Assembly: GCA_048941015.1 (NCBI GenBank)
Contig: JBHLNZ010000064.1
Span: forward strand, 1 to 17,838
Reading direction: 5' to 3'
From: Promethearchaeota archaeon
GTDB taxonomy: Archaea; Asgardarchaeota; Lokiarchaeia; Sigyniarchaeales; SOKP01
DNA length: 17,838 bases
The notes beneath the pieces were generated by a model. It saw only the letters and a list, made by a program, of their open reading frames with translations. It had not been told where the DNA came from and made no database searches. Made by a program: the position numbers and the translations under genes. The stretch's first letter is position 1. The number at the start of each line of letters is the position of its first letter. Shown one piece after another: positions 1,997 to 17,838 of the stretch.

Positions 1997-3256
1997 ATGC
2001 CAAGTTCTAAAGAATTTATTGAAATGGATCTGGAATATTGTGCTCATAATTATCATCCTATACCTGTAGTTATTTCAAAAGCTAAAGGTGTTTGGGTATA
2101 TGATCCTGAAGGAAACAAGTATCTTGATTGCTTATCTGCCTACTCAAGTCAAAATACAGGACATTGTCATCCTGAAATTATAAAGGCATTAAAAGAGCAA
2201 GCTGATAAAGTAACTCTTACATCTAGAGCGTTTCATAATGATTTAATGGGTCCCTTCTTGAAAAAATTATGTGAAGTTGTTGGTCCTCATGTTAATGACC
2301 CTAATAATTCAGGAATTATGAGTATTCCGATGAATACAGGAACAGAGGCAGTCGAAACAGGACTTAAAGTAGCACGAGCATGGGGGTATATAAAGAAGAA
2401 GATACCAAAGGGAGAAGCTCATATTATCGCTTGTAGAGACAACTTCCATGGCAGATCAATAACAATAGTCGGAATAAGTACAGATATATCCGCTGTTCGA
2501 TATTATGGTAACTTTTCTCCCTATACACCAGGATTCAGTATAATTCCCTACGGAGATTCCAATGAACTTGAAAATATAATTCTGGAAATAGGACCAGAAA
2601 AAATTGCTGGCTTTATCTTTGAACCAATTCAAGGGGAAGCTGGTGTAAAGGTTCCTCCAGAGGGATTTATTAGAAAAGCAAGAGATATTTGTACAAAGTA
2701 TAATGTTCTAATGATTGCAGATGAAATTCAGACTGGTTTTGGAAGAACGGGCGCATTATTTGCATGTGATCATGAAGATGCAAAACCAGATATGCTTCTA
2801 CTTGGTAAAGCGCTTGGTGGAGGGGTATATCCTGTTTCAGCTGTTGTTACAAATAGAGAGGTTATTGGACCAGATGTAATAAAACCTGGGACTCATGGTA
2901 GTACCTTTGGAGGAAATCCTCTTGCTTCAGCAGTTGCCATGAAGTCATTAGATATCCATATAGATGACCATCTTGCGGAAAGAGCTAAAGAATTTGGAGC
3001 TTACTTTATGAATGGCCTTAAAAAAATCGCAGAAAAAGAAACAATTGTCCCAATAAAGGAAGTTCGAGGTAAAGGTTTGTTAATGGCAATTGAATTTGAA
3101 ACAGATGCTAGGCATATTGTTGAAATGCTAAAAGATAATGGTATTTTAGCTAAAGACACACACTCAACAACTATTAGATTCGCGCCACCCTTAATCGTTA
3201 CAAAAGATGAAATTGATTGGGCATTGAAGATTATTGAAAAAGTTCTTGTAAAGTAA
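1997..3256 (+). CDS. rocD: Ornithine--oxo-acid aminotransferase (class III PLP)
   Basis: AHNYHPIPVV, YLDCLSAYS, LTLTSRAF-like 'VTLTSRAFHND', EPIQGEAG, DEIQTGFGRTG, LGKALGGG (PLP Lys), PGTHGSTFGGNPL, LAKDTH..IRFAPPL. Confidence 0.95.
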   Translation: MPSSKEFIEMDLEYCAHNYHPIPVVISKAKGVWVYDPEGNKYLDCLSAYSSQNTGHCHPEIIKALKEQADKVTLTSRAFHNDLMGPFLKKLCEVVGPHVNDPNNSGIMSIPMNTGTEAVETGLKVARAWGYIKKKIPKGEAHIIACRDNFHGRSITIVGISTDISAVRYYGNFSPYTPGFSIIPYGDSNELENIILEIGPEKIAGFIFEPIQGEAGVKVPPEGFIRKARDICTKYNVLMIADEIQTGFGRTGALFACDHEDAKPDMLLLGKALGGGVYPVSAVVTNREVIGPDVIKPGTHGSTFGGNPLASAVAMKSLDIHIDDHLAERAKEFGAYFMNGLKKIAEKETIVPIKEVRGKGLLMAIEFETDARHIVEMLKDNGILAKDTHSTTIRFAPPLIVTKDEIDWALKIIEKVLVK

Positions 3257-3266
3257 GCAAATAAAT

Positions 3267-4184
3267 CTATTCCTTATTAATATAGAAGTGGGTACCTGCT
3301 TTTCCTTCTAATGCTTCTTTAATTTTTTCTATTGATGTTATAATTGCTTGCTCTCCACCCGCTTCAAGAAAGTTAATAACAGCTTCTACTTTTGGTTGCA
3401 TACTCCCAGCTGGAAAGTGGCCCTCCTTCAAATAGTTTTTAGCTTCTGATATCGAAATTCTATCTAGAGTTTTTTGATTTTGTTTTCCGTAATTGAGAGC
3501 AACCTTCTCGACATCAGTTGCTATTAATAAGATGTCTGCTCCAATTTGTTCTCCTAATTTAGAGCTAGCGAGATCTTTATCTATTACTGCTTCTACTCCA
3601 GATAATTGTTTCCCTTCTTTAATGACAGGTATACCCCCACCTCCGCAAGCGATAACTATCCAGCTCCCAAATTCCATTAGCTTTTTTATTTCACGCCATT
3701 GGTAGATTTTCTTAGGTTTAGGTGAAGGAACTACTCTACGCCATCCCTTAGCTGTTTCAACATATCCAGGTTTAGGTTTAGGATATGCTGGACCTATTGG
3801 TTTTGTTGGATTGTGAAAAGCTGGATCTTGAGGATCAACTTTTACATAGGTAAGAACAGTAAGAAAAAGCTTCTCCTCATCAAGCCCTATTCTCATTAAC
3901 TCTTCATCTAAAGTTGATTCAATCATATAACCGATTTGACCTTGAGTTTCAGCCACTAAAACCTGTAATGGTCTTTTTGAAACTTCAGCTGTAGCCTCTT
4001 GTTGCATAAGAAGCATCCCTACTTGAGGACCATTTCCATGGGTTATTACAATATTAAAATCTCGAGAGAGTTCTGCAATTTGGCTCAAGGGGACTTTTAA
4101 ATTTCTAAATTGTTCTTCTGTAGTTCCTTCTTCTCCAAATTTGATTAACGCATTTCCTCCGAGCGCAACAATTAAAGTTTTCAT
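3267..4184 (-). CDS. arcC: Carbamate kinase
   Basis: VALGGNAL, THGNGPQVG, ETQGQIGY, NPTKPIGP, WRRVVPSP, GGGGIPV, EAVIDKD, FPAGSMQPKVEA. Confidence 0.97.
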   Translation of the reverse strand: MKTLIVALGGNALIKFGEEGTTEEQFRNLKVPLSQIAELSRDFNIVITHGNGPQVGMLLMQQEATAEVSKRPLQVLVAETQGQIGYMIESTLDEELMRIGLDEEKLFLTVLTYVKVDPQDPAFHNPTKPIGPAYPKPKPGYVETAKGWRRVVPSPKPKKIYQWREIKKLMEFGSWIVIACGGGGIPVIKEGKQLSGVEAVIDKDLASSKLGEQIGADILLIATDVEKVALNYGKQNQKTLDRISISEAKNYLKEGHFPAGSMQPKVEAVINFLEAGGEQAIITSIEKIKEALEGKAGTHFYINKE

Positions 4185-4321: not shown

Positions 4322-5821
4322 CTATTTTTTAATATCTTTTATAACTAAACTTGATGCTATATTTTTAAAATTCTCTACGATTTCTTCATAATTTTCATCA
4401 TATTTAAACCACCAGAGATCCGGCTCTTTGTATTGATCGATATTGATATGTATTGGTCTTGTTACTTCAAGAAACCCAAATTTGCCGTGTGTTCTGCCTA
4501 TACCTGAGTTTTTTACACCTCCCCATGGAGTAGCTGCAAGCGCAAAAGTATACACTACTTCATTTATCATTACTGAACCCGTTTCTAATTCCTCAGCGAT
4601 CTTTTGACCAAATTCAATGTTATTTGTCCATACACTCGATGTTAATCCATATTGATTGCTATTGACCATCTCAATTACTTCTTCCTCAGTAGTAAATTTC
4701 AAGACAACTAGTACGGGACCAAATATCTCTTCCTGAACAACTCGCATATTGTTATCATTCACTTCTAGGATGGTAGGTTCATAAAAATAGCCATTATAAT
4801 TAGGATTTCTTCTTCCCCCGATTAAAACCTTTGCCCCTTCTTCAATACCCACTTTAACCATTTTATCCACCCAATTTAGTTGTTCTTCATTGATCATCGC
4901 GCCAACATCGATATTCGGTTCTGTAGGAATACCTTGCTTTAGCTTTTCGGTCAATTCGACCAACTTTTGTAGGAAATCTTTGTAAATCTCTTCATGGATA
5001 TATAATCGTTTAACAGATGCACATACTTGACCCGAGTTTGTAAAAGCACCCCATCGAGCTGCTAAAACTGCTCGTTCAAGATTTGCATCAGGAAATATTA
5101 TCATCGCAGATTTACCTCCAAGTTCAAGTGCTACTTCGGTAAGGGTATCAGCTCCGCGCTGCATTATTCTTTTTCCTGTTGCTGTGCTACCAGTAAAAAT
5201 TACTTTATCGGCATTATCAATTAGGGGATTTCCAATCTTGGAACCACTTCCAAATACCGTTTGAACCAAATTTTTTGGTAAATCGATAGCATCAAAGATT
5301 TCTTGAATTTTTTGTCCAACAAGCACTGTTTCTGATGAAGGCTTAAATATTACACTATTTCCCGCCATTAAGCTTTGTACAATCTGTTGAAATGGTATCG
5401 TAAATGGATAATTATAAGGGCCTATAACACATACCACTCCAATTGGTTTTCTCAAAATAATACTCCGTTTATCCAATGATTCATAAAAACCTAATGGAAT
5501 GGTTTCCTCTCTTCCCAGAATATCAATTACATTCGAATAATAATAAAAGGTGGAGTCCATAACACCATATACTTCGTTCACAAAAGCTTCTGACGGAGGT
5601 TTACCTACTTCCTTAGAAATTAATAATGAAATCTCATCAAATTGTTTTGAGATTATCTCATTCACTTTAACTACTCGTCTTACCCTTTCCTCAAGGGAAA
5701 TCTTAGCCCACTTTTTTTGAGCAAGACGAGCATCATTAAATATCTTATCAATGCTTTCTACTGGTGTTTCTTCCACTTCTCCATTTAACTCTAGAGTAGC
5801 GGGATTTATACTTTTAATCAT
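4322..5821 (-). CDS. NAD(P)-dependent aldehyde dehydrogenase (not canonical RocA/PutA-type; substrate uncertain)
   Basis: PYNYPF, GNSVIFKPS, FTGSTATGK, catalytic Glu in LELGGKS, catalytic Cys in NSGQVCAS, EEIFGPV, PWGGVKNSGIGR. Confidence 0.93.
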   Translation of the reverse strand: MIKSINPATLELNGEVEETPVESIDKIFNDARLAQKKWAKISLEERVRRVVKVNEIISKQFDEISLLISKEVGKPPSEAFVNEVYGVMDSTFYYYSNVIDILGREETIPLGFYESLDKRSIILRKPIGVVCVIGPYNYPFTIPFQQIVQSLMAGNSVIFKPSSETVLVGQKIQEIFDAIDLPKNLVQTVFGSGSKIGNPLIDNADKVIFTGSTATGKRIMQRGADTLTEVALELGGKSAMIIFPDANLERAVLAARWGAFTNSGQVCASVKRLYIHEEIYKDFLQKLVELTEKLKQGIPTEPNIDVGAMINEEQLNWVDKMVKVGIEEGAKVLIGGRRNPNYNGYFYEPTILEVNDNNMRVVQEEIFGPVLVVLKFTTEEEVIEMVNSNQYGLTSSVWTNNIEFGQKIAEELETGSVMINEVVYTFALAATPWGGVKNSGIGRTHGKFGFLEVTRPIHINIDQYKEPDLWWFKYDENYEEIVENFKNIASSLVIKDIKK

Positions 5822-5843
5822 TAATTTAACACGATTATAAAAC

Positions 5844-5859
5844 TATTTAAACATTTTTT
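5844..5859 (-). promoter_or_regulatory. Putative BRE-TATA promoter for a leaderless ALDH transcript
   Basis: Minus strand AAAAAATGTTTAAATA with the TATA ending about 22 nt before the ATG at 5821, the spacing expected for leaderless archaeal mRNA. Confidence 0.45.
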
Positions 5860-5955
5860 ACATGATTTATAATACAATTTTTTTAAATATGAGATTCACT
5901 TCAATTAAAAAGATGCTTTTTTGATGTCAGTGGAAGTATTAGTTGGAAAATTATT

Positions 5956-7521
5956 CTAAGAATTTTTCTTTTTATTTTTTTTTCTCTTTGCTTTTTCTTT
6001 CGGTTTCTCATATTCCTTAATAGGTTTTAAATAATCAATAGGTCTATCGCATACCCAACAAACATTTTCTAAGTTAGTTATTGCTCGAGCGCAATTTTCA
6101 CAATAAATAGTTCCACACTGACATATGTATGAGAATCTTAACACTTCACCCCGACATACTAAACAAATTTTAGTTTCTTTTGTAATAGCCACTTTCTCAT
6201 CTCTAACATAAAAAGTTAATATAGTAGGATTTCGAATCATTCCCTCAATTTGTTCATGCAAACGAGCTAACACAACACGATCAGCCATGGGTGCATCTTC
6301 TTCCTTTAATTTTTTCCATAAATGTTCATTTTTGAGTAAATCTTCATTTTCCTTAAAAATTTTTGTGGCCAATTTACTAGGGCCAAATCTATTCGCTACT
6401 TGTTGAGCTTGAATTAAGAAGCGTTTGGCCTTCTTTATGTTAAATGTTAAAAGATGTAATTTTCCTTGTAAGAGATATGTTTCGGCAGCAAAATAGTAAG
6501 TAAAAAAAGTTCCTGGTTGTTCAGCAAAGTTTAATAACATTCTAATATATGGATTTATCTCGTTTATTATATCTGTATCATTAGTTATACTTAATTCGGT
6601 AAGGAGTAGACTACAAAGATTTATTATAGCTTTGATATTGAAAGAAGGAGCGAAAGGAAGACGTTTCTTAACCATTTGTTTAAATAATTCTTCTGCTTTA
6701 ATTCGATCCCTTGCTCTCAAACTCGTTTTCAATATTAAAGCTTCATAATATTGATATATTAAATTTTTATATTTATTTTGATCTTTTTCTCTTAATTCAC
6801 TCATCTCTTGGAAATAAAATTTTGCATTAAGAACATCACCTTTAACAAGAAAAATTTCAATCAAAAGTCCCAGTAATATTAATAAATAAGGGGGATAATT
6901 AACTTCTATAGCACGTTTTGCATAGTATATAGCTTTATCATAATCTCCTAAAGCTTGATAATCTTCAGCAAGATTTAGAAGACAGGGAACTATCAAGCCT
7001 TTATCATCACTATCTTTTGCCAGTTCTAAAGCTTTTTGATTCCCATTAAGACCAAGACGAGGTCCTCCCGTAAGTGCTATACTAAGAGTATCTATTCTTA
7101 CCATGAAAGATTCTCTTTCTCTGAGATCTGTTTTTGATACTCTTTTAAGGTTCTCAAGCACTTTTTTTGCTTGTTTTAGTATAGTGTTAGCTCGAGTTAA
7201 ATCCCCTATCATTACAAGAGAATGTGCTTGAATCAACAAACCATCTAAATATGAAAATGAATCGCTCTGTTTTTGACTTTCTTCTAATACTTGGTTAACA
7301 TATTTTACAGCTTTTAAATATTCTGAAGATCTGTCAAAAATCATTGCTTTTAAAAGTTTAGAATAGAGTAAATCTTGAGAAGAATAGTCATCTCTTTTTT
7401 CTAATTCTAAAACAATTTGAGAGGCTTCCTTAATATATCCTTCTTCGATAAGTTGTTTTGCGTGGATCAATTCTTCTGGTAAATTTTTTTTCTCATTTTG
7501 TCTTATTTTTTTAGCTGTCAA
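5956..7521 (-). CDS. TPR-like helical repeat protein with C-terminal C4C4 RING-like zinc finger (paralogue 1)
   Basis: TPR-like segments such as 'LLNLAEDYQALGDYDKAIYYAKRAIE'. Eight Cys in C-x2-C-x10-C-x-C-x4-C-x2-C-x10-C-x2-C at 6049-6165. Lys-rich tail. TTG start preceded by AGGAGG. Confidence 0.85.
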   Translation of the reverse strand: MTAKKIRQNEKKNLPEELIHAKQLIEEGYIKEASQIVLELEKRDDYSSQDLLYSKLLKAMIFDRSSEYLKAVKYVNQVLEESQKQSDSFSYLDGLLIQAHSLVMIGDLTRANTILKQAKKVLENLKRVSKTDLRERESFMVRIDTLSIALTGGPRLGLNGNQKALELAKDSDDKGLIVPCLLNLAEDYQALGDYDKAIYYAKRAIEVNYPPYLLILLGLLIEIFLVKGDVLNAKFYFQEMSELREKDQNKYKNLIYQYYEALILKTSLRARDRIKAEELFKQMVKKRLPFAPSFNIKAIINLCSLLLTELSITNDTDIINEINPYIRMLLNFAEQPGTFFTYYFAAETYLLQGKLHLLTFNIKKAKRFLIQAQQVANRFGPSKLATKIFKENEDLLKNEHLWKKLKEEDAPMADRVVLARLHEQIEGMIRNPTILTFYVRDEKVAITKETKICLVCRGEVLRFSYICQCGTIYCENCARAITNLENVCWVCDRPIDYLKPIKEYEKPKEKAKRKKNKKKNS

Positions 7522-7530
7522 TTATAATAC

Positions 7531-7536
7531 CCTCCT
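7531..7536 (-). promoter_or_regulatory. Shine-Dalgarno site AGGAGG for paralogue 1
   Basis: Minus strand GGTAGGAGGGTATTATAA directly precedes the TTG at 7521. Confidence 0.6.
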
Positions 7537-7545
7537 ACCGATTAT

Positions 7546-9054
7546 TTACTTTTTTACTTTTTTCCCATTCTTCGCTCCTTCTTTTATTTCCTCATATTCC
7601 TTAATGGGTTTTGAATAATCAATACGTTTATCACACAACCAACAAACATTTTCTAAATCGGTTATTGCTTGAGCACATTTTTGACAATATATTGCTCCAC
7701 ACTCACATATATATGAGAATCTTAACACATCACCTCTACATACCAAGCAAACTTTTTTCTCTTTGGAAACTGCTACTTTTTCTTCAGTGAATTGAAACGT
7801 TATAACAATGCTTTTTTGTGTCATTCGTAGAATTAATTCATCTAATTGAGCTAATTCTATCCTATCAGCCATAGGTGCTTCAATTTCTTTTAATTTTTCC
7901 CATGAATCTGATTTTTGGAGTAAAATTTCAATTTCATCCGAAATCAACTCATCAAACTGTCTATATCCCATTCGTTCCGCTATTTTTTGAGCTTGAAATA
8001 ATAATCTTTTAGCTTTTGTAAAATTAAAAGTTAGTAGTGCCAATTTTGCTTGCAAGAGATAAATTTCAGAAGAAAACCAATAAGATTGTTCGCGATGAAT
8101 AAATTTTGATAATTGTATTGTGTAATGCTTTATTTCATTTATGATATCTAAATCGTTAGTTATGCGTAATTCTATAAGCATTAGGCTGCAAAGTTGTAGG
8201 AGGGATTTTATAACCATTTGGAAATCTTTTTTCTCTTCAATAATTTTTTTAAAAATTGCTTCTGCATCAACTCTACTTTTTGCCCTTAAACTTGTTTTTA
8301 GGATTAGAGCTTTATAGTATCGGTAGACTATACTATCTGTATCTCGTTCTGAAAATTCCATAAGATGTTCCATCTGAGAAAAATAATATTTTGCATTTTT
8401 AATATCACCTTTTCCAAGAACACAATCAATCAATGTTCCTAACCTCATTATTGAAAAAGGAGGATATTGAGTATCTACAGCACTTTTTGCGTAGAAAAGC
8501 GCTTTATCATAATCTCCTAAGTATTGGTATACTTCTCCGAGATTTATAAGGCTTGAGATAATCAGATGTTTATCTTCAGTTTCTTTTGCTAATTCATATG
8601 CTTTTTCATTTAACTTACGTGAAAGATGAAAATCTCCTTTTATAGCTTCGATACAAGCTTTGGTTCTAAGCATAAAAGATTCCCTTTCTTTAATATCTGC
8701 ATTTGGAATGTTTTTAAGTTTCTCAAATAATTCCTCAGCGTCTTTAATAATGGCTTCGCTCTGACTTAAATTTCCCGACATAATAAGTGCATATCCCTTA
8801 ATTAACAATGCATCAAAAATTAAGGATAGATTATCTAACTTCTTTCTTTGCTCTAATATTCGATTGGAACAATCAAGAGCATCGAAATATCGTGAGGATC
8901 TGTTATAGAGAGTTCCTTTGATTGAATAACATAAAAATAGTTCTTGATCAGAGAGTTGGCTCTTTTTCTCAAACTCTAAAATTAATTTTAAGGCTTCTTT
9001 AATCCTGCCATCTGCCATTAATTGTTTTGTTTGAACTAATTCATTTGATAACAA
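7546..9054 (-). CDS. TPR-like helical repeat protein with C-terminal C4C4 RING-like zinc finger (paralogue 2)
   Basis: Collinear with paralogue 1 (ERESFM.R, GDYDKA..YAK.A, YY.ALILKTSLRA, APMADR, CLVCRG.VLRFSYIC.CG.IYC..CA.AIT.LENVCW.C at 7633-7749). TTG start; an in-frame stop lies 11 codons upstream. Confidence 0.85.
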   Translation of the reverse strand: MLSNELVQTKQLMADGRIKEALKLILEFEKKSQLSDQELFLCYSIKGTLYNRSSRYFDALDCSNRILEQRKKLDNLSLIFDALLIKGYALIMSGNLSQSEAIIKDAEELFEKLKNIPNADIKERESFMLRTKACIEAIKGDFHLSRKLNEKAYELAKETEDKHLIISSLINLGEVYQYLGDYDKALFYAKSAVDTQYPPFSIMRLGTLIDCVLGKGDIKNAKYYFSQMEHLMEFSERDTDSIVYRYYKALILKTSLRAKSRVDAEAIFKKIIEEKKDFQMVIKSLLQLCSLMLIELRITNDLDIINEIKHYTIQLSKFIHREQSYWFSSEIYLLQAKLALLTFNFTKAKRLLFQAQKIAERMGYRQFDELISDEIEILLQKSDSWEKLKEIEAPMADRIELAQLDELILRMTQKSIVITFQFTEEKVAVSKEKKVCLVCRGDVLRFSYICECGAIYCQKCAQAITDLENVCWLCDKRIDYSKPIKEYEEIKEGAKNGKKVKK

Positions 9055-9195: not shown

Positions 9196-10128
9196 CTAAA
9201 ATTTATCACGTAAAAATAGCATTATTGCTTTTTGACCATGAAGGCGGTTTTCTGCTTCATCAAATACAACAGAATGCATTCCATCAATAACTTCTGCAGT
9301 TTGTTCATATCCTCGCATCGCTGGTAAACAATTCATAAAGATGGCATCTGATTTTGCATTTGCTAATATATTACTGGTAACTTGAAAAGGTATAAACGCT
9401 CTTTTTCTTTCTTCTTCTTGTTCGAGTGGAATACCATATGACATCCAAGAATCGGTATATAATATATCCGATTCATTCGCAGCTTCAAGAGCATTGTGAA
9501 CTACTTTTACTTCTGCACCAGAATTTTTGGATAGATTATTGACTTCGTTAAGCACTATCTTTTCAGGGGTATATTCTGGGCCTTTTGGACAAGCAACATC
9601 TAAGGTTAACCCAAACATAGCACTCATTCTCATGATATCATAGGTCACATTATTATGAGCATCTCCATAATAAGACATTTTTAAATTTTTTAATCGTCCT
9701 TTCTTTTCTTTAATTGTTAAAAAATCAGCTATAATTTGGCAAGGGTGAGCAAAATCATCTAACATATTTATTACCGGAACGTCAGAATATTTGGCAAGGT
9801 CCCATATATCTTGTCGTTTAAAAACTCGAGCTGCGATAAGATTAACATACCTAGAAGCCACCTTTGCAGTATCGCTAATGTTTTCTTTCTTTCCAAGAGG
9901 GGAATCTTTAATGGAATAAAAAATAGCATGACCACCTAATTGCTGCATTCCCGTTTCAAATGAAACACGTGTTCTTAAGGAAGGCTTTTCGAATATCATT
10001 AACAAAGTCTCATCTTCTAATGAATTCTTAAAATTTTTTGGGTTTTTTTTAATTTCAATTGCTTTTTCAATAACTTTCTCGCATTCTTCTTTTGAAAAAT
10101 CAGAGATTTTTGTTAAATGTCTAACCAT
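9196..10128 (-). CDS. argF: Ornithine carbamoyltransferase (probably catabolic, ArcB role)
   Basis: FEKPSLRTRVSFE (carbamoyl-phosphate site), LGGHA, HPCQ, GDAHNNV, YTDSWMSYG, FMNCLPAMRG, FDEAENRLH. Confidence 0.93.
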   Translation of the reverse strand: MVRHLTKISDFSKEECEKVIEKAIEIKKNPKNFKNSLEDETLLMIFEKPSLRTRVSFETGMQQLGGHAIFYSIKDSPLGKKENISDTAKVASRYVNLIAARVFKRQDIWDLAKYSDVPVINMLDDFAHPCQIIADFLTIKEKKGRLKNLKMSYYGDAHNNVTYDIMRMSAMFGLTLDVACPKGPEYTPEKIVLNEVNNLSKNSGAEVKVVHNALEAANESDILYTDSWMSYGIPLEQEEERKRAFIPFQVTSNILANAKSDAIFMNCLPAMRGYEQTAEVIDGMHSVVFDEAENRLHGQKAIMLFLRDKF

Positions 10129-10194
10129 TTTTATTCAATTCTAATTTTTTTATATCAGTTTCTTGAATTTATATCTAAATTTTCATTTAAATTT

Positions 10195-11373
10195 TTACTT
10201 TAGTTCTTCTTTTTGAGAAAAATCACGATTACTAGATAAGCTTGCTAATATTTCTTTATCTTTAGCAGATAATTTTTTAGTTATAATACGACTTATTAAT
10301 TCACCGAGACCTGGCCCAATCATAAATCCTTGCCCACATAAACCTACAGCATTAATATAACCTTCGATATTATCCTCTAATCCGATTATTGGATTACCAT
10401 CGGGTGTCATTGGATATAATCCTCTCCACGTTCTTCTAATTTTTATGTTTTGTAACCGTGGTAAAAGTGATATCATTCTTTTTGATATTTGTGGTAAATA
10501 AGAACTGGTTTCTTGACGATCCTTTCCTATAATACTCGGATTAGGAGTTAAACAGAAAATAATTTTTCCTTTTTTATTCTGATAAAAATAGTAATTTTTA
10601 GAATCTCCAAATTTGGGATCTTTAGAAGGCCGAATATCTACTACCATTGGTTCAAAAAATTTTTTAACTGGTTCAGTTATCCCCGCCTCATGAGATTCAG
10701 GTATTACCGGTAAATCGATACCTATCGTTTTTCCAATTTCTTTAGCGTTAGCACCAGCAGCATTAATAACATAATCCGCCTTGTATTTTTCTTTAGATGT
10801 TTTTACTCCTATAATTTTATTATTCTTAGTTAAAATATCAATAACTTCTTCTTTAAATTTATAATCTGTTCCATAATTTTTAGATTGTCGAAAAAAAGAG
10901 TGTAATGAAAGTAAGGGAGATGCGTTTCCATCTTCAGGACTGTAGGTTCCCCCTCTTAAGCCATTATCCTTAATTCCCGGGATTAATTCTCTAATCTTTT
11001 CGGAATCAACAAAATCTATATTCAACCCATATTTCTTTTGTTTTTTTACATTCTCTCGAAGAAAATTTTCATCTTTTTGGTTAAACGCTAGAAATGTATA
11101 ACCACCATCGATCCACCAAATGTCATCACCAAATTTCTCTTCCCAAGTAGAAAAAATTTCAATAGATCTTTGACATAACCATATCTTAGCTTTATGAGTA
11201 TGAGTTGCCCTTATCCCTCCTATTGCATGTTTATTATCACCTTGCGCAACGGATGGTAAGAAATCTATTACCAATGTTTTTAATCCATCATTCGCAGTTG
11301 CTAAAGCTGTTGGAATTCCTACACTTCCTGCTCCAATGATTATTACATCATATTCTACCAAATGTATTCTCAC
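10195..11373 (-). CDS. FAD-dependent amino acid oxidoreductase, DAO family (dye-linked proline dehydrogenase / sarcosine oxidase beta-like)
   Basis: YDVIIIGAGSVG Rossmann motif, GGIRA, VINAAG, RTWRGLYPMTPDGNPIIG, GLCGQGFMIGP. GTG start overlaps the upstream TGA stop (GTGA), although a TTG four codons later is an alternative start. Confidence 0.85.
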   Translation of the reverse strand: MRIHLVEYDVIIIGAGSVGIPTALATANDGLKTLVIDFLPSVAQGDNKHAIGGIRATHTHKAKIWLCQRSIEIFSTWEEKFGDDIWWIDGGYTFLAFNQKDENFLRENVKKQKKYGLNIDFVDSEKIRELIPGIKDNGLRGGTYSPEDGNASPLLSLHSFFRQSKNYGTDYKFKEEVIDILTKNNKIIGVKTSKEKYKADYVINAAGANAKEIGKTIGIDLPVIPESHEAGITEPVKKFFEPMVVDIRPSKDPKFGDSKNYYFYQNKKGKIIFCLTPNPSIIGKDRQETSSYLPQISKRMISLLPRLQNIKIRRTWRGLYPMTPDGNPIIGLEDNIEGYINAVGLCGQGFMIGPGLGELISRIITKKLSAKDKEILASLSSNRDFSQKEELK

Positions 11374-13448
11374 TTCCTCTCTTCTTGTACCCCTGCAAAA
11401 AGTCCCATAGATACTTCCATAAATAAGGGGCGCATAGTATGTGGAGTGATCTCTTCAATTTGTACACCTTCTTCTTGGAAAATCCGAAATATTAAGGGAA
11501 TACAAGTTTTTCCACCACATGCTCCCATTCCAACTCTAGTTAAAGCCTTGAGTTCATTAAAATCCCTTACTCCACAACGAATCCACTTTCTAACTTCTCC
11601 AACAGAAACTCTTTCACACCTGCAAATAATCACATCATCTTCAGTGTAGGTTTTCTGGTAAGTATCAATTGATTCAGTATAAGTGGTTTTTTTTAGTCTT
11701 ACTGCTACTGCTTTCTTTGCTATCTCTTTAGGTAATTTAATAGTAATTAATTGTGTTTTGGGGAATTCTTTAAGTATTCGTGCTCGATAAATTTCGAATT
11801 CTCCTAATTCTTGATCATTACTTACAACAAATACTTTTTTTCCTTTCACCAATTTTTCAAAACTTAATTCAAGAGGAAAGGTAACTAGTGGATTTTTATT
11901 ATCTTTTCGATAATCTACCAAAGTAACAGCTAAACCGGGACAAACTGCTACACATTTACCACATCCCAAACATTCTTTATCATCATTAAAGAAAGGTAAC
12001 TGAGAAATTAATCCATCAACAGTTTCAATTTGTTCTTGTGGGCAAACTGATGTGCATGGATTACAAGGGATTTCTTGATTACAATGAAAAAGGGGAAAAA
12101 TCCCTTCTTCTTTTTCTAAGTTAATAGACTGTGTTGGTAAAGGAGGTTTAGCTTTCATAAGATCCGCAAATTCTTGGAGATCTTCAATACTCTCGGAAAA
12201 TTTCACACCCTTTTCTCTAAGGATTTTAAATGCTTCAACTTTCCCAGTAAAGATTGCAGCAGAAGCTTCAGCGATTTCTTGAGCATCACCTGCAATCCAA
12301 ACTTTCATTCCAAATTGGGTTGCTTTATGGTAAAATTCATCAACTCGATTCAAACCTACTGCAATTAAGATTGTATCACATGCAAAGGTCTTTCCTGTTT
12401 CTGAAGCAATATCTCCATTATCATTAAGTTTCCCAATAGTAATTGATTTAACCTTCTCATCTCCATTTGCCGAAATAATAGTATGATTAGTAAAAATTGG
12501 AACTCCTAAACGTCTAAGTTTATCTTCATGAACCTTATAGCCTCCACAATAAGGTAGTGCTTCAATTAAACCAATTACATCGATACCTGCTTGAATTGCG
12601 TGATAACCTGCTATTAGTCCAACATTGCCACCTCCAACTATAAAAACTTTATCTGCTGCTCTTACCAAATCTCTATTAACAAGAGTTTGAAATGCACCTG
12701 CTCCATAAACACCAGGGAGAGTATTACCAGGAAAAACTAACATTTTTTCTCTCGCACCTGTAGCTATTAGGAGATATTGAGGCTTGACTAAAACATATTC
12801 ATTACCATTTTTCAATATTCCAATAATTTTATCTCTAAAAACCGCTAAAGCAGTACTATTTAGCCAAACTTTTACATTTTCTAATTGTTTTACATTTTGT
12901 CCCAAAATTTCTGCGATATGAATACCTCGTTTCCCTGCATATACGTCCTCTTCAGAACCAAAAAATTTATGCGTTTGAAGTACTAATTTTCCTCCTAGTC
13001 TATCTTTATCATCAATTAAAATAACATCTAAACCATGTTCACCTAAAATTTTAGTAGCCGAAAGTCCTGCTGGCCCAGCACCGATCACCAATGCTTCAGT
13101 TTCTATTATTTTTGGATCCTTTAGTTTAATTTCTTTATCATTTGAGGGTAGCTCAGGTAAGCCATTACAGCTCTCAATAATCATCCCTTCCTTAAGAGGA
13201 GTCATACAACCTTTTACAGGAATTCCGTTTACAATTACATTACATTGAGAACACTGTCCATTCGCGCAAAAAATTCCCTGAGGACTCCCATCCTTCTCAT
13301 GATGACCAAATATTTTAATCTTATTTAGAAAAAGCGCGGAAGATATAACCATCCCTTCAAACCCAGTCAATTCTTTTCCATCAAAGCTAAATTTAATCTT
13401 ATTTCTTTGGGGTATTTCTAAAATGGGATGTTTGGTTATATGTTCCAT
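11370..13448 (-). CDS. Multidomain Fe-S flavoprotein: [2Fe-2S] + FAD/NAD(P) oxidoreductase + 2x[4Fe-4S] + BFD-like domain (proline dehydrogenase / sarcosine oxidase alpha-like fusion)
   Basis: CANGQCSQC...C, VIGAGPAG, ATGARE..FPGNTLPGV, IVGGGNVG, CNQEIPCNPCTSVCP, CLGCGKCVAVCP, ICRCERV...TRVGMGACGGKTC. Confidence 0.88.
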   Translation of the reverse strand: MEHITKHPILEIPQRNKIKFSFDGKELTGFEGMVISSALFLNKIKIFGHHEKDGSPQGIFCANGQCSQCNVIVNGIPVKGCMTPLKEGMIIESCNGLPELPSNDKEIKLKDPKIIETEALVIGAGPAGLSATKILGEHGLDVILIDDKDRLGGKLVLQTHKFFGSEEDVYAGKRGIHIAEILGQNVKQLENVKVWLNSTALAVFRDKIIGILKNGNEYVLVKPQYLLIATGAREKMLVFPGNTLPGVYGAGAFQTLVNRDLVRAADKVFIVGGGNVGLIAGYHAIQAGIDVIGLIEALPYCGGYKVHEDKLRRLGVPIFTNHTIISANGDEKVKSITIGKLNDNGDIASETGKTFACDTILIAVGLNRVDEFYHKATQFGMKVWIAGDAQEIAEASAAIFTGKVEAFKILREKGVKFSESIEDLQEFADLMKAKPPLPTQSINLEKEEGIFPLFHCNQEIPCNPCTSVCPQEQIETVDGLISQLPFFNDDKECLGCGKCVAVCPGLAVTLVDYRKDNKNPLVTFPLELSFEKLVKGKKVFVVSNDQELGEFEIYRARILKEFPKTQLITIKLPKEIAKKAVAVRLKKTTYTESIDTYQKTYTEDDVIICRCERVSVGEVRKWIRCGVRDFNELKALTRVGMGACGGKTCIPLIFRIFQEEGVQIEEITPHTMRPLFMEVSMGLFAGVQEERK

Positions 13449-13484
13449 TTAGAATCTTATTATAATATAATTTAAGTTTTAATA

Positions 13485-15665
13485 TTATTGATATGGCTTA
13501 ATAAACGCAATTACATCATCATAATCAATACCTAATTCTTTAATCTTTTTAAGGGTAGGGCATCCTTTTTGGTTCCATCCCCTTTCTTTATATACTGCGT
13601 CTTGAAGTTTAGAATATTGTTCCTCTCGATATTCTCTTAAAAGTTTGACTTTTTCTTCAACATTTTTTCCAGAAATTTTGACTCCCAGCTCTTTTAATTG
13701 AGTATCATACCTTTCGGCCCGACTTTCATATTCTAATGGTGTAACTGGACCCATCGCTCGATAAGGAAAATTTGAATCATGTTCACGAAGACCCTTCCCT
13801 TGTCTTATATTAAAAATTCTCTGGAAGTTATACACAACTTCGGACATCATAATAAGGTCATCGGGAGTGGATTGCCGTCCTGTAACAGCTGAAAAATACT
13901 TTGCATACCATTCAACGTGATCAGGAACTTTAGCTCTAATTAACTCACCAGTTTCTGGATCTTTAATGGGATAATCTGCTTGAGAAGTTGGTTGAATATC
14001 ATTCCATGGAAGTTTACATAAACCATTTAACCCAAACCAAGTACGCCATAATGGAAACCATCGTAATGCTCTTGCTTTATCCTCAAAAGTGGGGATTGAA
14101 TTTCGGATAACATCCTCAAATATAAGCCATGCCTCATCATGTTGTGGCCCCTTATTAGTAAATCCATACCCTCCCTGCTGAGCTAAAGATTCCTTCGTAA
14201 CATATTCTGAAAATTCTAATCCTTTATGCTCCATTCCAATATCTTGGAGGAATTGAGGATCTGCACCATGCTTTTCAGCGAAAATCTTTTTCATTTCTTT
14301 TATGCCTTTACCAACAATAGCCCCAAATCCTTCGCCTCTCCTTATTTGATGAATAAGCTCGACCGCAGCCTCAGCATTACCGAATTTAAGTTCAAGACCC
14401 CCAGTTATTTCTTTATTCAAAATACCTGTTTCATAACATTCCATTACGAAAGCAATGCCCGTTCCCAAACTAATTGTATCTAAACCATACGTATCACAAT
14501 AAAAATTAGTTTCAAGAACCCATTTTGGATCCCATACACCCCAATTAGAGCCACATCCTGCTATTGTTTCATATTCGGGACCATCAACTATTACTTTTTG
14601 TCCTTTAAATGGTCCCGTTAATACCTCGTGGCCTTCTGAATAATGGGAACAACTAACAGTACATCCTAACCAACAACCATCAGCTCCTTCTCGACCTGAA
14701 TAAATCTTTCTCATTTCTTCTCTGCTATAAGGAATATCTTTTCCATCAATTTCCCTATGTCTTCCAAACCGGAAATTTTCAGTTGGAAGTAAATCAGTAA
14801 CATTCATAATATCAGGAAGATGACCTGTCCCTACTCGGCGCATTTCATTTTGAATGGGATCAAGTTTCATTATTTCTTGGCTGTGTGCCTTTCCAAGTTC
14901 CCTTGCTGTTTCTAAGTCCTCTGGATTATTTGAACTCACCGTTACCTTTGGAGAACGACATACTAAAGCTTTTATTTTTTTATCGGCGAAAACAGTTCCA
15001 ATTCCGCCTCGACCAGCTTGCTTATATGATGCCCAATTACGACCCTTAACATACCATGAAAAATTAAGTATACCCCATTTAGAATGTTTAGCAGCGGGAC
15101 CAGTACTCACTACTGAAATGCGTTGTTTCTCGCCTTCTTCTTTGGCATATTTTTCAGTTAGCTCTTGTGTAAGTAAATGCGAATATTCTGAATATTTATT
15201 TGAATTTTCTGTAGACTCTATTTGAACATATCCTTTTACTCCGTTTATATATATAATAACCTCTTTATCTGATTTGCCTTGTATTTCAATTGCATCAAAA
15301 CCAGAAAATTTTAAATAAGGGCCGAAATAACCACCTACGTTGCTATCAACAATAATCCCGGTCAGGGGAGAAACAGTTGTGACTATAGATTTTCCAGAAC
15401 CAGGATAAAAAATATTTCCTCCTAATGGTCCTGAAGAAATACATATCTCATTTTCTGGATCATTCCATTTTACTATTCTATCTTTTGGAAGAGCATTCCA
15501 CATTAACCATAAATCAAATCCTTTTCCACCAATAAATTTCTGTTTCATTTCATGGATAACAGGTTTAATGAGAATCTCATTTTTTGTTAAATTTATATAT
15601 AAAATTTGATTAGCGTAACCTTTTTCAACTTCAGGAATTTGATATTCTTTCCTAGCAAGGATCAA
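13485..15665 (-). CDS. Tungsten-pterin aldehyde:ferredoxin oxidoreductase (AOR/WOR family)
   Basis: FIGGKG, SPLTG..DSNVGGYFGPYLKFSGFDAI, AGRGGIGTVF..KKIKA, Fe-S Cys in GCWLGCTVSC and GLCKLPW, GPEYET, CDTYGLDTISLG, YKERGW...G.PT...KELGI. Confidence 0.93.
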   Translation of the reverse strand: MILARKEYQIPEVEKGYANQILYINLTKNEILIKPVIHEMKQKFIGGKGFDLWLMWNALPKDRIVKWNDPENEICISSGPLGGNIFYPGSGKSIVTTVSPLTGIIVDSNVGGYFGPYLKFSGFDAIEIQGKSDKEVIIYINGVKGYVQIESTENSNKYSEYSHLLTQELTEKYAKEEGEKQRISVVSTGPAAKHSKWGILNFSWYVKGRNWASYKQAGRGGIGTVFADKKIKALVCRSPKVTVSSNNPEDLETARELGKAHSQEIMKLDPIQNEMRRVGTGHLPDIMNVTDLLPTENFRFGRHREIDGKDIPYSREEMRKIYSGREGADGCWLGCTVSCSHYSEGHEVLTGPFKGQKVIVDGPEYETIAGCGSNWGVWDPKWVLETNFYCDTYGLDTISLGTGIAFVMECYETGILNKEITGGLELKFGNAEAAVELIHQIRRGEGFGAIVGKGIKEMKKIFAEKHGADPQFLQDIGMEHKGLEFSEYVTKESLAQQGGYGFTNKGPQHDEAWLIFEDVIRNSIPTFEDKARALRWFPLWRTWFGLNGLCKLPWNDIQPTSQADYPIKDPETGELIRAKVPDHVEWYAKYFSAVTGRQSTPDDLIMMSEVVYNFQRIFNIRQGKGLREHDSNFPYRAMGPVTPLEYESRAERYDTQLKELGVKISGKNVEEKVKLLREYREEQYSKLQDAVYKERGWNQKGCPTLKKIKELGIDYDDVIAFIKPYQ

Positions 15666-15671
15666 ATAATA

Positions 15672-15676
15672 TCACC
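15672..15676 (-). promoter_or_regulatory. Archaeal Shine-Dalgarno GGTGA supporting the TTG start of AOR
   Basis: Minus strand TTGGTGATATTAT then TTG at 15665 (6 nt spacing). Confidence 0.6.
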
Positions 15677-15771
15677 AATATACAAAAATTTGTTTAAATA
15701 ATATAAAACAATCCTATAGAGGGTGATTTTGATATAACTATATGCCCTCAATTTTTTAAAAAATTTGCTAT

Positions 15772-17109
15772 TTATTTTAAGAATTTATGAGTAAAATCAT
15801 CTAAAACGTCTTCAATAGTTGGACTCTTTACAGCTTCAATATCATACCTAACGGTAACAATAGGCTTATTTACTTTAACCAACTTCTCCAAATCAATTGG
15901 GCTTCCGTTAACAATAATATCGCATTTTGCTTTATTTAAGGTTTTTTCCATATCTTCAATTTGTTCATCACTATAACCCATTGCAGGAACAATCTCAGTA
16001 ATATGTGGGAATTCCTCGAATAAATCTTTCATAGTTCCCACAAGATAAGGTTTAGGGTCCACTATTTTTGCTCCTGCATTTTTTGCTGCAACATAACCCG
16101 CTCCGATTGCCATGCCTCCATGGGTCAATGTTGGACCGTCCTCAACCACAATAACCTTCTTTCCCTTCATCTTAAGAGGGTTATCAGCAGTAACTGTAGA
16201 ATTTGTATACACTCTCACTGCATTAGGATTCAATTCGTCTAAATCCCTCTCAACAATCTGTACATCTTCTGGTTTAGCACTATTCATTTTATTGATAACA
16301 AATACATCTGCATATCGAGCATTGACTTCTCCTGGATGATATTCTATTTCATGTCCTGGTCGTAGGGGATCTACAACTACAAATAGTAAATCTGTTATAT
16401 AGAAAGATATTTCATTATTGCCACCATCAAAAACAATTACATCTGCTTCTTTTTCCGCTTCTCTTATGATTTTCTCATAGTCTACTCCAGAATAAATAAC
16501 CAATCCTTGTCTAATATAAGGCTCGTATTCTTCTCTTTCTTCTATTGTACAGTCATATTTATCCAAATCATCGTAGGTTTCAAATCTCATAACATTTTGT
16601 TGAATCAAATCACCATAAGGCATTGGTTCTCTTATAGCTACGACTTTAATACCTTTTCCCTTTAAATATCGATATACTGCTCTCGAAACTTGACTTTTTC
16701 CACAGCCAGTTCTAACTGCACATACTGCTATGACAGGCTTGTTGGACTTTATCTGAGTAAATCGCCCCGAAATGAGACGATAATTTGCTCCCGCAGACAA
16801 TGCTCTGCTGGCTTTATGCATCACTTCTTCATGGGAAACATCACTGTAAGCAAATACAACTTCATCAACTTGGTGTAATTTGATTGCTTGCTCAAGTGCC
16901 TCTTCGGGAATCATAGGGATTCCTTTAGGATATAGTTTTCCAGCTAGTTCTGCAGGGAATCTCCGCTCTTCTTCCTCTACTGTTCCTACATTCTGTTCTC
17001 CTGCGATAGTAAACGCTAAAACCTCATATTCTTCATTATCTTTGAAAACGGTATTGAAAACATGAAAATCCATTCCTAGGGCGCCGATGATAATAACTTT
17101 TTTTTTCAT
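15772..17109 (-). CDS. arcE: Arginine synthetase (ArcE)-family P-loop protein, usually auto-annotated as GTPase or cyclic 2,3-diphosphoglycerate synthetase-like
   Basis: DFH.FN, PAELAGKLYPKGIP, FAYSDVSHEEVMHKAS, P-loop AVRTGCGKS, PMPYGDL, CTIEEREEYEPY, DGGNNE, HPGEVN, VEDGPTLTHGGM, PAMGYS. These match my recollection of the Thermococcus kodakarensis arginine synthetase family. Clustered with OTC and carbamate kinase. Confidence 0.82.
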   Translation of the reverse strand: MKKKVIIIGALGMDFHVFNTVFKDNEEYEVLAFTIAGEQNVGTVEEEERRFPAELAGKLYPKGIPMIPEEALEQAIKLHQVDEVVFAYSDVSHEEVMHKASRALSAGANYRLISGRFTQIKSNKPVIAVCAVRTGCGKSQVSRAVYRYLKGKGIKVVAIREPMPYGDLIQQNVMRFETYDDLDKYDCTIEEREEYEPYIRQGLVIYSGVDYEKIIREAEKEADVIVFDGGNNEISFYITDLLFVVVDPLRPGHEIEYHPGEVNARYADVFVINKMNSAKPEDVQIVERDLDELNPNAVRVYTNSTVTADNPLKMKGKKVIVVEDGPTLTHGGMAIGAGYVAAKNAGAKIVDPKPYLVGTMKDLFEEFPHITEIVPAMGYSDEQIEDMEKTLNKAKCDIIVNGSPIDLEKLVKVNKPIVTVRYDIEAVKSPTIEDVLDDFTHKFLK

Positions 17110-17436: not shown

Positions 17437-17838
17437 TTAATTTAGTTGATTTATCCATTTTTCTACTTCATCTCGTGCGTTTTTTACGCTTCCACCGCGA
17501 AAGGAAATTGCGTTTTTAATTTCTGCTTTAGGGCAGAGTTGTGCAATATCCTTCAAACTTCTTCCTAGTCCGCTACCCTCATGTGTACAAAAAGGAATTA
17601 TTGTTTTATTTGAAAAATCATAAGATTCTAAGAAAGTACGAATTGCCATAGGCGTAGTTCCCCACCAATTAGGGTAACCTAAAAATATAACGTTATATAC
17701 TTCCATATCCACAATATGATCTGAAAGTTCTGGTCTAGCATTATTTTTTAATTCTTGTTTTGCCACTTTAGTCGTTTCCTCATAACCTTTTGGATATTGT
17801 TTTACTGTATCAATATGAAACAAATCTCCTCTGACAAT
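17437..17838 (-). CDS. Flavodoxin (Flavodoxin_4-like), 5' truncated by the window edge
   Basis: Frame is open to the window end (IVRGDLFHIDTVKQYP...). Motifs ARPEL, IFLGYPNWWGT.P, PFCTHEGSG.G. The ORF track's start at 17823 is an internal Leu codon. Confidence 0.88.
   Translation of the reverse strand: MVRGDLFHIDTVKQYPKGYEETTKVAKQELKNNARPELSDHIVDMEVYNVIFLGYPNWWGTTPMAIRTFLESYDFSNKTIIPFCTHEGSGLGRSLKDIAQLCPKAEIKNAISFRGGSVKNARDEVEKWINQLN

Follow-up and report, generated by a model that had tools for sequence, protein, structure and literature searches.

A candidate glutamate-5-semialdehyde oxidoreductase of the aldehyde ferredoxin oxidoreductase family in an arginine, ornithine, and proline gene cluster of a Promethearchaeota archaeon

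Described relatives of the enzyme and of its gene cluster

Glutarate is bound by the formaldehyde ferredoxin oxidoreductase (FOR) of Pyrococcus furiosus, a member of the aldehyde ferredoxin oxidoreductase (AOR) family, and the presumed substrate of this enzyme is a C5 acid-semialdehyde or dialdehyde (PMC12096430). Here, we describe another member of this family, encoded in a 17,838-nucleotide stretch of DNA from a Promethearchaeota archaeon. This stretch (hereafter, the window) is one entire 17.8-kb contig (C144) of a 3.59-Mb metagenome-assembled genome (MAG) that is 95% complete; its proteins find their best matches in Loki-type Asgard archaea. The AOR gene occupies positions 13485..15665 of the minus strand, encodes 726 amino acids, and stands in a cluster of genes related to arginine, ornithine, and proline. 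Our best reading of this cluster, not of the whole clade to which the protein belongs, is that the AOR oxidizes glutamate-5-semialdehyde (GSA) to glutamate, and we regard the chances of this as about even. We infer GSA as the substrate, along with which metal is bound, which carrier accepts the electrons, and in which direction the reaction runs.

FOR (1B25, 1B4N) shares the fold of this protein and was its best Foldseek match (TM-score of 0.85 by target). The likeness extends to the architecture of a [4Fe-4S] cluster with a bis-pterin and to the second-shell residues. However, the identity is 28%, the protein of the window exceeds FOR by ~110 residues, inserted mostly in the C-terminal half, and its cysteine motif is Cx3Cx3C instead of Cx2Cx3C. 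Orthology with FOR was rejected, as FOR (165 bits) is no closer than the P. furiosus AOR (PfAOR, 181 bits) and the long clade is separate. The C5 acid-semialdehyde or dialdehyde presumed for FOR is chemically close to GSA, so a semialdehyde substrate would not be foreign to the family. Roy et al. are said to have tied FOR to arginine, lysine, and proline metabolism in 1999. The FOR gene is not known to neighbor genes of proline or ornithine metabolism.

The same family includes AOR sensu stricto, represented by the enzymes of P. furiosus (1AOR) and C. autoethanogenum (9G7J), the Aromatoleum AorABC (8C0Z), and the bifurcating WOR (9MQX). The protein of the window matched 1AOR in a phmmer search (E 4e-52) and shares its Thr/Glu/Tyr/His second shell. 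It differs by belonging to a separate clade, by its greater length and other cysteine spacing, and by Trp513 in place of PfAOR Tyr452. The clade is recurrently linked with genes for the alpha and beta subunits of a proline dehydrogenase (PDH), not with partners of the AorA/AorC type. Meanwhile, a polyferredoxin encoded before the clade AOR in Chloroflexota and in one Asgard genome resembles AorA or the WOR5 beta subunit.

The proposed reaction, and its place in the pathway after ornithine-oxo-acid aminotransferase (OAT) or proline dehydrogenase, would be those of pyrroline-5-carboxylate (P5C) dehydrogenase, which belongs to the aldehyde dehydrogenase (ALDH) superfamily (RocA or the C-terminal part of PutA). 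The analogy would be functional only: sequence and fold are unrelated, a tungsten- or molybdenum-pterin and Fe-S would serve instead of NAD+, and the acceptor would be ferredoxin or flavodoxin. The best solved relatives of the two genes following the AOR are the alpha and beta chains of the Thermococcales PDH, solved from Pyrococcus horikoshii (1Y56). In the window, however, the alpha chain is a 692-amino acid fusion with [2Fe-2S], two [4Fe-4S], and BFD-like modules, coupled genetically to an AOR; we know of no description of such coupling for the Thermococcales enzymes.

The arginine genes of the cluster resemble the ArcE pathway of Thermococcus kodakarensis, in which an ArcE protein, ornithine carbamoyltransferase (OTC), and carbamate kinase (CK) work without arginine deiminase (ADI), and OAT leads onward to GSA/P5C (PMC11032458). 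Unlike the proposed route, that pathway is described as feeding proline synthesis and has no AOR or PDH (PMC11032458). The arginine synthetase papers, including PMC11032458, do not address the fate of GSA toward glutamate. Among the papers searched, none joins aldehyde ferredoxin oxidoreductase with GSA or pyrroline-5-carboxylate, and none joins Prometheoarchaeum with arginine and aldehyde.

If GSA is indeed the substrate, the AOR family would gain its first member that acts physiologically on an amino acid semialdehyde, and P5C dehydrogenase would be replaced here by a ferredoxin-linked enzyme. The ornithine/proline-to-glutamate step of the recently described arginine-synthetase route would be closed, and a low-potential electron for H2 or formate would come atop two ATP per arginine in syntrophic amino-acid-fermenting Asgard archaea. 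A function would thereby be found for a member of the large set of unclassified, highly expressed AORs noted in Asgard genome papers (PMC11291895). The recurrence of the association in Desulfobacterales and Chloroflexota offers culturable organisms.

The AOR protein and its long clade

The open reading frame (ORF) at 13485..15665 opens with a TTG codon on the minus strand. This start is supported by the orthologs, which are also ~726 amino acids long and align from residue 1 (consensus MILAE.KY). The Pfam domains AFOR_N (PF02730; E 4.5e-48, 164 bits versus a cut-off of 29.8) and AFOR_C (PF01314; E 1.8e-94, 317.5 bits versus a cut-off of 27) agree with the ORF that this is a 726-amino acid AOR-family protein, as the first-pass annotation had it.

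The iron-sulfur motif C331-W-L-G-C335-T-V-S-C339 (codons at 14649..14675, minus strand) is of the Cx3Cx3C type and differs from the CY-ACPIGC (Cx2Cx3C) motif of PfAOR by a one-residue insertion between the first two cysteines. All four presumed ligands of the [4Fe-4S] cluster are present: C331, C335, and C339 align to Cys288, Cys291, and Cys295 of 1AOR, and C550, which corresponds to PfAOR Cys494, lies in the sequence GLCKLPW (codon at 14016-14018, minus strand). The second-shell residues span 14139..14828 on the minus strand. In the phmmer alignment to 1AOR, T280 (14826-14828), E366 of the triplet E364-Y365-E366 (14568-14576; PfAOR Glu311-Tyr312-Glu313), Y488 (14202-14204), and H509 (14139-14141) take the positions of PfAOR Thr243, Glu313, Tyr427, and His448, which a 2025 review lists as conserved in active AORs (PMC12096430). 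T280, E364, Y365, E366, Y488, and H509 are invariant in the alignment of orthologs (A3).

The AlphaFold2 model reached a pLDDT of 85 and a pTM of 0.91, with low confidence in the loop 482-509. Foldseek matched it with 1B25, 1AOR, 9MQX, 9G7J, and 8C0Z (E 1e-29 to 1e-32, TM-scores by target of 0.83-0.88), the best folds being FOR 1B25 and AOR 1AOR (0.85-0.88). Judged by its domains and motifs, the gene product is a presumably catalytically intact member of the AOR family.

A search against 1.8 billion representative sequences returned long relatives of 700-741 amino acids (35-60% identity, 369-926 bits), followed by ordinary AORs of 600-650 amino acids scoring at most 293 bits. The Cx3Cx3C motif was read in 115 of the 115 clade members collected. 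Their median length is 726 amino acids (range 702-826), compared with 604-653 for the solved AOR-family chains and 568-699 for the paralogs of the same genome. The unusual length and cysteine spacing pointed out by the first-pass annotation are therefore properties of the clade. Orthologs with 55-82% identity were found in Asgard archaea, Bathyarchaeia, Desulfobacterota, Chloroflexota, Bacillota, Thermotogota, and Bipolaricaulota.

The genome of the window carries 11 AOR-family genes. There are thus ten others, including canonical AOR-like ones, with AOR-family genes on contigs C132, C126, C24, C21, C85, C120, C118, C17, and C44. The long clade is monophyletic against six of these ten paralogs in a tree built with FastTree only, which has long outgroup branches and solely same-genome paralogs as the outgroup. 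Among nine of the other paralogs whose motifs were read, seven have Cx2Cx3C only, the short paralog L009 has Cx3Cx3C (CNPGCIIQC), and L010 has both in overlap (CCPTCVIRC). The Cx3Cx3C spacing thus marks the clade, yet is not unique to it within the family. On these sequence comparisons, the long AOR clade is distinct and uncharacterized.

Two other assignments were tried and rejected. The GAPOR model NF040818 gave 46.8 bits against a cut-off of 1300, with the N-terminal domain alone matched. For the YdhV-type molybdenum enzymes and the BamB clade, NF007354 gave 106 bits against a cut-off of 868, our protein keeps the second-shell residues, whose loss combined with an additional Cys metal ligand marks that group, and BamB was the weakest PDB match. 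In-frame stop codons were seen in two Asgard orthologs, in the region L019:8493-10706 (genome G019; two TAA) and at G069:C21 (one TAG). They may be sequencing errors or pseudogene marks.

Gene cluster in the window and its conservation

In the window, the AOR gene is followed on the minus strand by genes for a PDH alpha-like Fe-S flavoprotein, an electron-transfer subunit of 692 amino acids (11370..13448), for a PDH beta-like flavoenzyme of the DAO family with 392 amino acids, presumed to convert L-proline to P5C (10195..11373), and for OTC (arcB; 9196..10128; TIGR00658 at 356 bits, cut-off 281). The AOR and PDH alpha genes are 36 bp apart, the two PDH genes overlap by 4 bp, and 66 bp separate PDH beta from OTC, so that the layout of AOR-PDHa-PDHb-OTC is tight and operon-like. 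Upstream of the AOR, on the same strand, lies the gene for a 445-amino acid ArcE-like P-loop protein, presumably an arginine synthetase (15772..17109). The position between arcE and the PDH-like genes given in the first-pass annotation was thus confirmed, with the ArcE-like protein recognized by description and the PDH pair by its likeness to 1Y56. The cluster is completed by CK (arcC; 3267..4184, minus strand; TIGR00746 at 375 bits, cut-off 358) and by OAT (rocD; 1997..3256, plus strand; TIGR01885 at 520 bits, cut-off 378), a direct source of GSA.

The 106-bp spacer between arcE and the AOR (15666-15771) contains, by eye, an oligo-T run and then an A/T-rich TATA-like stretch ~40 nt before the TTG codon. 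The AOR-PDHa-PDHb-OTC genes may therefore have a promoter separate from that of arcE. No RNA sequencing runs covering 9196-17109 were listed, only sediment and mangrove DNA metagenomes.

According to Pfam, the PDH alpha-like protein comprises a [2Fe-2S] domain (Fer2_4), an FAD/NAD domain (Pyr_redox_2), two [4Fe-4S] modules, and a BFD-like [2Fe-2S] module. Its best solved relative is the alpha chain of the P. horikoshii L-proline dehydrogenase (1Y56_A, E 4e-22). The beta-like protein (DAO, E 3e-55) is closest to 1Y56_B (E 8e-48, 167 bits), with glycine oxidase coming next (E 8e-22, 81 bits). It reaches no NCBIfam cut-off and also matches the ThiO, SoxB, and N-methyl-Trp oxidase models. The ArcE-like protein belongs to no Pfam or NCBIfam family and weakly matches cyclic-2,3-diphosphoglycerate (cDPG) synthetase (E 1.5e-4); its homologs are annotated as 'predicted GTPase' or 'cDPG synthase'. 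ArcE homologs have been described as family-less putative GTPases encoded beside arcB/arcC in genomes that lack arcA, and they are reported from Lokiarchaeota (PMC11032458). The 445-amino acid protein fits this description, the comparison being with the description and not with the TK2200 sequence. No gene of the ADI family (arcA) was found in the genome of the window.

The cluster was then compared across 201 Asgard genomes with orthology set by E-value thresholds; the MAGs are incomplete, the contigs short, and the ORF calls crude, and since related genomes are not independent, neither are the counts of co-occurrence. The AOR ortholog is present in a single copy in 96 of the 201 genomes. We examined 40 of the Asgard loci with ~9 kb on each side. 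The set arcE-AOR-PDHa-PDHb-OTC-CK-OAT is kept in 10 of them, all from a single taxonomic order, in families f1 (genera g1, g2, g4, and g5) and f2 (genus g10), with OAT conserved at the cluster end in 7 of the 10. The same set was found beyond the 40 loci, in L073, L074, L075, and L081. Six genomes of g1 and g2 lack the AOR, PDH beta, and OAT together, which indicates that the cluster is kept or lost there as a unit and that the AOR travels with it.

In the other 30 of the 40 loci, the AOR stands alone amid unrelated genes. The conserved neighbors of the unlinked AORs (f5, f7, f22, f27, g3, g6, and g8) amount to within-family synteny only and are unrelated genes, encoding an Arf-like GTPase, FeoB, EamA, PEPCK, HdrBC-like, and DUF364 proteins. 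In f5, an Arf-family small GTPase gene immediately follows the AOR in the same orientation at 7 of 8 loci (e.g., L042:8204-8767). Elsewhere in Asgard archaea, PDH alpha/beta forms a free-standing two-gene unit, and these stand-alone pairs have no conserved neighbors. The PDH alpha gene is always paired with the beta gene, whether the AOR is near or not.

A scan of species-representative genomes gave 80 loci of the clade, of which 76 entered the neighbor counts and 42 of these 76 had at least 4 kb on both flanks. The first-pass annotation had made its GSA proposal depend on an association of the clade with proline/ornithine genes, and such an association was found: the commonest neighbor families are PDH beta (20 loci) and PDH alpha (18 loci), and a gene for PDH alpha/beta, a class-III aminotransferase, or an OCD-family protein lies within 10 kb of the AOR in 25 of the 76 loci (18 of the 42 with at least 4-kb flanks). 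These linked loci span Asgard archaea, Desulfobacterota, Chloroflexota, and Bacillota, and their gene orders differ. The Loki-type Asgard order is AOR-PDHa-PDHb, whereas that of Desulfobacterales is GntR-PDHa-PDHb-AOR, often with an OCD-family gene before it and a Liv-type amino-acid ABC transporter beside it, and sometimes with an omega-aminotransferase. The Anaerolineae locus L108 reads polyferredoxin-AOR-OAT, with an OAT of 574 bits to TIGR01885 (cut-off 378). In L102, the AOR is followed by a PRK05769-type omega-aminotransferase, and in the Thermoanaerobacteraceae locus L127, split PDH-like genes precede the AOR. The PDH-linked members form three separate subclades on the FastTree tree. 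Among Chloroflexota with an unlinked AOR, a model-grade OAT was found in 4 of 5 genomes versus 1 of 14 controls. Meanwhile, the single distant representatives of the clade, P0124, P0125, P0127, and P0128, have no proline/ornithine context; their neighbors are either ILVD_EDD, FAD_binding_4, and ThiS, or polyferredoxin, ThiS, radical SAM, and a second AOR.

The GSA and proline enzymes were also looked for elsewhere in the genomes. In the genome of the window (95% complete), no ProA or ProB scored above the cut-off, while ProC is present; it has two ALDHs only, neither at the cut-off of the RocA model. That cut-off was passed in none of the 201 Asgard genomes. A full-length RocA-like class (356-435 bits) occurs in f5, f7, f14, and others, and none of at least 356 bits was found in f1, where ten cluster-bearing genomes lack even the generic type of ALDH present in the window. 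This pattern leaves the AOR as the only conserved aldehyde-oxidizing gene beside two GSA/P5C-producing enzymes in f1. The claim that the AOR replaces RocA is supported by the absence of a model-grade RocA from the genome and of RocA-like proteins of at least 356 bits from f1. It was slightly overstated, since the window holds a generic 499-amino acid ALDH, although one that is unconserved in other clusters.

ProA is found in none of the genomes of g1 (0/16), g2 (0/10), and g4 (0/4) versus 4/4 in g3, 2/2 in g6, 1/1 in g7, and 1/1 in g8. Within f1, it is confined to g3, g6, g7, g8, and one g5 genome, a distribution complementary to that of the arc/OAT cluster (g1, g2, and g4). The anti-correlation with proA, which had been expected for the AOR, exists for the arc/OAT cluster and not for the AOR itself, as g3, g6, and g8 have both genes. 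ProC is present in 16 of 16 g1 genomes and in 2 of 10 g2 genomes, and it is absent from f7 and f5, in which the AOR is present. Four g1 genomes have ProC and no ProA, OAT, PDH, or AOR.

Proposed reaction and its alternatives

In the proposed scheme, the ArcE-like protein, OTC, and CK would convert arginine to ornithine with a yield of ATP, the presumed arginine synthetase catalyzing Arg + ADP + Pi -> citrulline + NH3 + ATP. OAT would convert ornithine to GSA, and the PDH alpha/beta pair would convert proline to P5C, GSA and P5C being in equilibrium. At a W/Mo-bis-pterin center, the AOR would oxidize GSA to glutamate and pass two electrons via its [4Fe-4S] cluster to ferredoxin or to the neighboring flavodoxin. 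It would take over from the NAD-dependent P5C dehydrogenase without giving up the low potential of the aldehyde/acid couple. Such a specialized role is plausible beside ten other AOR-family paralogs.

Several observations weigh against this scheme, above all when it is extended to the clade. OAT or PDH beta is present in 54 of the 96 Asgard genomes carrying the AOR, and 42 have neither. In the Thor-like family f7, the AOR is found in 34 of 43 genomes, while OAT, PDH beta, ProA, and ProC are each found in 0 of 43. Genera g3, g6, and g8, which are nested in the linked Loki clade, retain the AOR after the loss of PDH and OAT, and they possess ProA. Bathyarchaeia gave a model-grade OAT in 0 of 5 genomes and PDH beta in 1 of 5; among Desulfobacterota with an unlinked AOR, 3 of 5 had no match to PDH beta and a fourth had only a 29%-identical one. 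Of five Desulfobacterales genomes carrying the module, one encodes a PutA-like fusion in addition. A comparison of the PDH-linked Loki and Desulfobacterales members with those of f7, Bathyarchaeia, and Chloroflexota gave only 11 conservative, non-exclusive columns and no residue signature, so there is no sign of specialization in the linked proteins. In the window itself, the generic ALDH (499 amino acids; 4322..5821, minus strand; PF00171, E 1e-142) is a local rival and could oxidize GSA. Its best model is SSADH (425 bits, cut-off 521), RocA gave 296 bits (cut-off 648), and none of the other linked clusters examined contains this gene. Lastly, proline is the presumed substrate of the PDH beta-like enzyme by analogy with 1Y56_B, the closest solved structure.

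The 42 carriers with neither partner and the lack of distinguishing residues make it most unlikely that the whole clade is a dedicated GSA enzyme fed in this way. Since many members occur without OAT or PDH, the clade probably takes other aldehydes or semialdehydes too; it either is broader in substrate range or has a further substrate. GSA oxidation would account for the linked members, a third to half of the clade, and is not our reading for all of it, so the annotation should not be transferred to every ortholog. The GSA substrate of the first-pass annotation is accordingly upheld in part, by the recurrent PDH/OAT context in several phyla.

The same absences (42 of the 96 Asgard carriers, most Bathyarchaeia, and some Desulfobacterota), the isolation of the AOR amid unrelated genes outside the linked groups, and the missing residue signature would suit a broad-range aldehyde:ferredoxin oxidoreductase, which removes reactive aldehydes or harvests low-potential electrons and for which GSA is one of many substrates. 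Characterized AORs are typically broad-range, with detoxification being a frequent role (PMC12096430). We consider this explanation possible, on balance doubtful, because canonical AOR-like paralogs are already encoded in the genome, the clade shows strong conservation as a single-copy gene, and the AOR is gained or lost with the cluster in g1 and g2. Moreover, a generic detoxifier would not be expected to have PDH beta and PDH alpha as its top neighbors in archaea and bacteria alike and with varied gene orders. A narrower possibility is that the AOR acts on an aldehyde released by the neighboring DAO-family dehydrogenase from a substrate other than proline, the candidates being pipecolate, sarcosine-type N-methyl amines, and polyamines, of which the first two would yield aminoadipate semialdehyde and formaldehyde, respectively. 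The beta subunit stays below the NCBIfam cut-offs and matches models of ThiO, SoxB, and N-methyl-Trp oxidase, and the alpha subunit is similar to sarcosine oxidase alpha. FOR, which works best on C1-C5 aldehydes (e.g., glutaric dialdehyde), is among the nearest folds. In addition, lysine cyclodeaminase and ketimine reductases belong to the OCD/mu-crystallin family found beside the Desulfobacterales module, and the L088 protein falls below the equivalog cut-offs. We nevertheless find a non-proline substrate unlikely: the Pyrococcus L-proline dehydrogenase beta chain is the best solved relative by a wide margin (167 versus 81 bits), a model-grade OAT, the product of which is GSA by definition, belongs to the Asgard clusters and immediately follows the AOR in L108, and the arc genes set an arginine/ornithine theme.

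The first-pass annotation had also suggested that the enzyme reduces glutamate in reverse without ATP. Working mainly in this direction with reduced ferredoxin, the AOR would supply GSA, and hence P5C for proline or ornithine synthesis, without ProB/ProA. AOR-family enzymes are able to reduce acids to aldehydes (PMC12096430), and ProA and ProB were not found in the genome of the window while ProC is present. However, cluster genomes already have P5C available from OAT, and g3, g6, and g8, which have the AOR and no OAT, keep ProA. Families f7 and f5 have the AOR without ProC and so would have no use for biosynthetic P5C, four g1 genomes conversely have ProC without the AOR and ProA, and the gene stands amid catabolic, ATP-yielding arc genes. 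Glutamate reduction as the main function was rejected on these phyletic grounds, and we consider it highly improbable. A further reading, to which we give little credence, goes beyond GSA oxidation in this cluster: the long clade would be a dedicated amino-acid-semialdehyde:ferredoxin oxidoreductase, physically joined with PDH alpha/beta as an anaerobic, tungsten-dependent counterpart of PutA, and its presence in both Asgard archaea and sulfate-reducing bacteria would stem from a spread of the module from one group to the other. Proline, or ornithine via OAT, would be converted to glutamate in one assembly with the unstable GSA/P5C handed on directly, and the flavin and Fe-S chain of the alpha subunit would merge or split the high-potential P5C/proline and the very-low-potential acid/aldehyde steps. 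A predicted complex of the AOR with PDH alpha residues 430-692 (alignments A3 and A2) scored 0.00 in a prediction run without controls, which speaks neither for nor against such an assembly.

Other genes of the window and further neighbors of the clade

The window ends within a flavodoxin gene (17437..17838, minus strand; NF005389, E 7e-35; NF005501, E 7e-32), which is truncated by the contig end and encodes a possible low-potential acceptor. A flavodoxin gene also adjoins arcE in the locus L012. At the other end, a membrane protein is encoded at 481-1800 on the minus strand. The ALDH gene and two genes for TPR proteins (5956-9054, minus strand, between OTC and the ALDH) split the arc cluster between OTC and CK at 4322-9054. 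The ALDH and TPR genes are absent from the other linked clusters, with one TPR gene kept only in G065 (L011), and look like a recent insertion.

No polyferredoxin gene of the kind seen in L108 was found at the PDH-linked AOR loci. Such a gene (130-164 amino acids) lies directly upstream of the long-clade AOR, often overlapping it, in Chloroflexota, in one member of Thermoanaerobacterales, and in the Asgard genome G089 (L108:9528-9980, L126:9551-9943, and five more loci). A similar polyferredoxin, which clustered with those of the long clade, is encoded beside a shorter AOR paralog in the Bathyarchaeia locus L093. Genes of the Amidohydro_3 family were seen at two loci: a D-aminoacylase-like one adjoins the AOR in a Hodarchaeales contig (L052:7676-9241), and another follows the AOR-OAT pair in L108 (L108:13726-15333).

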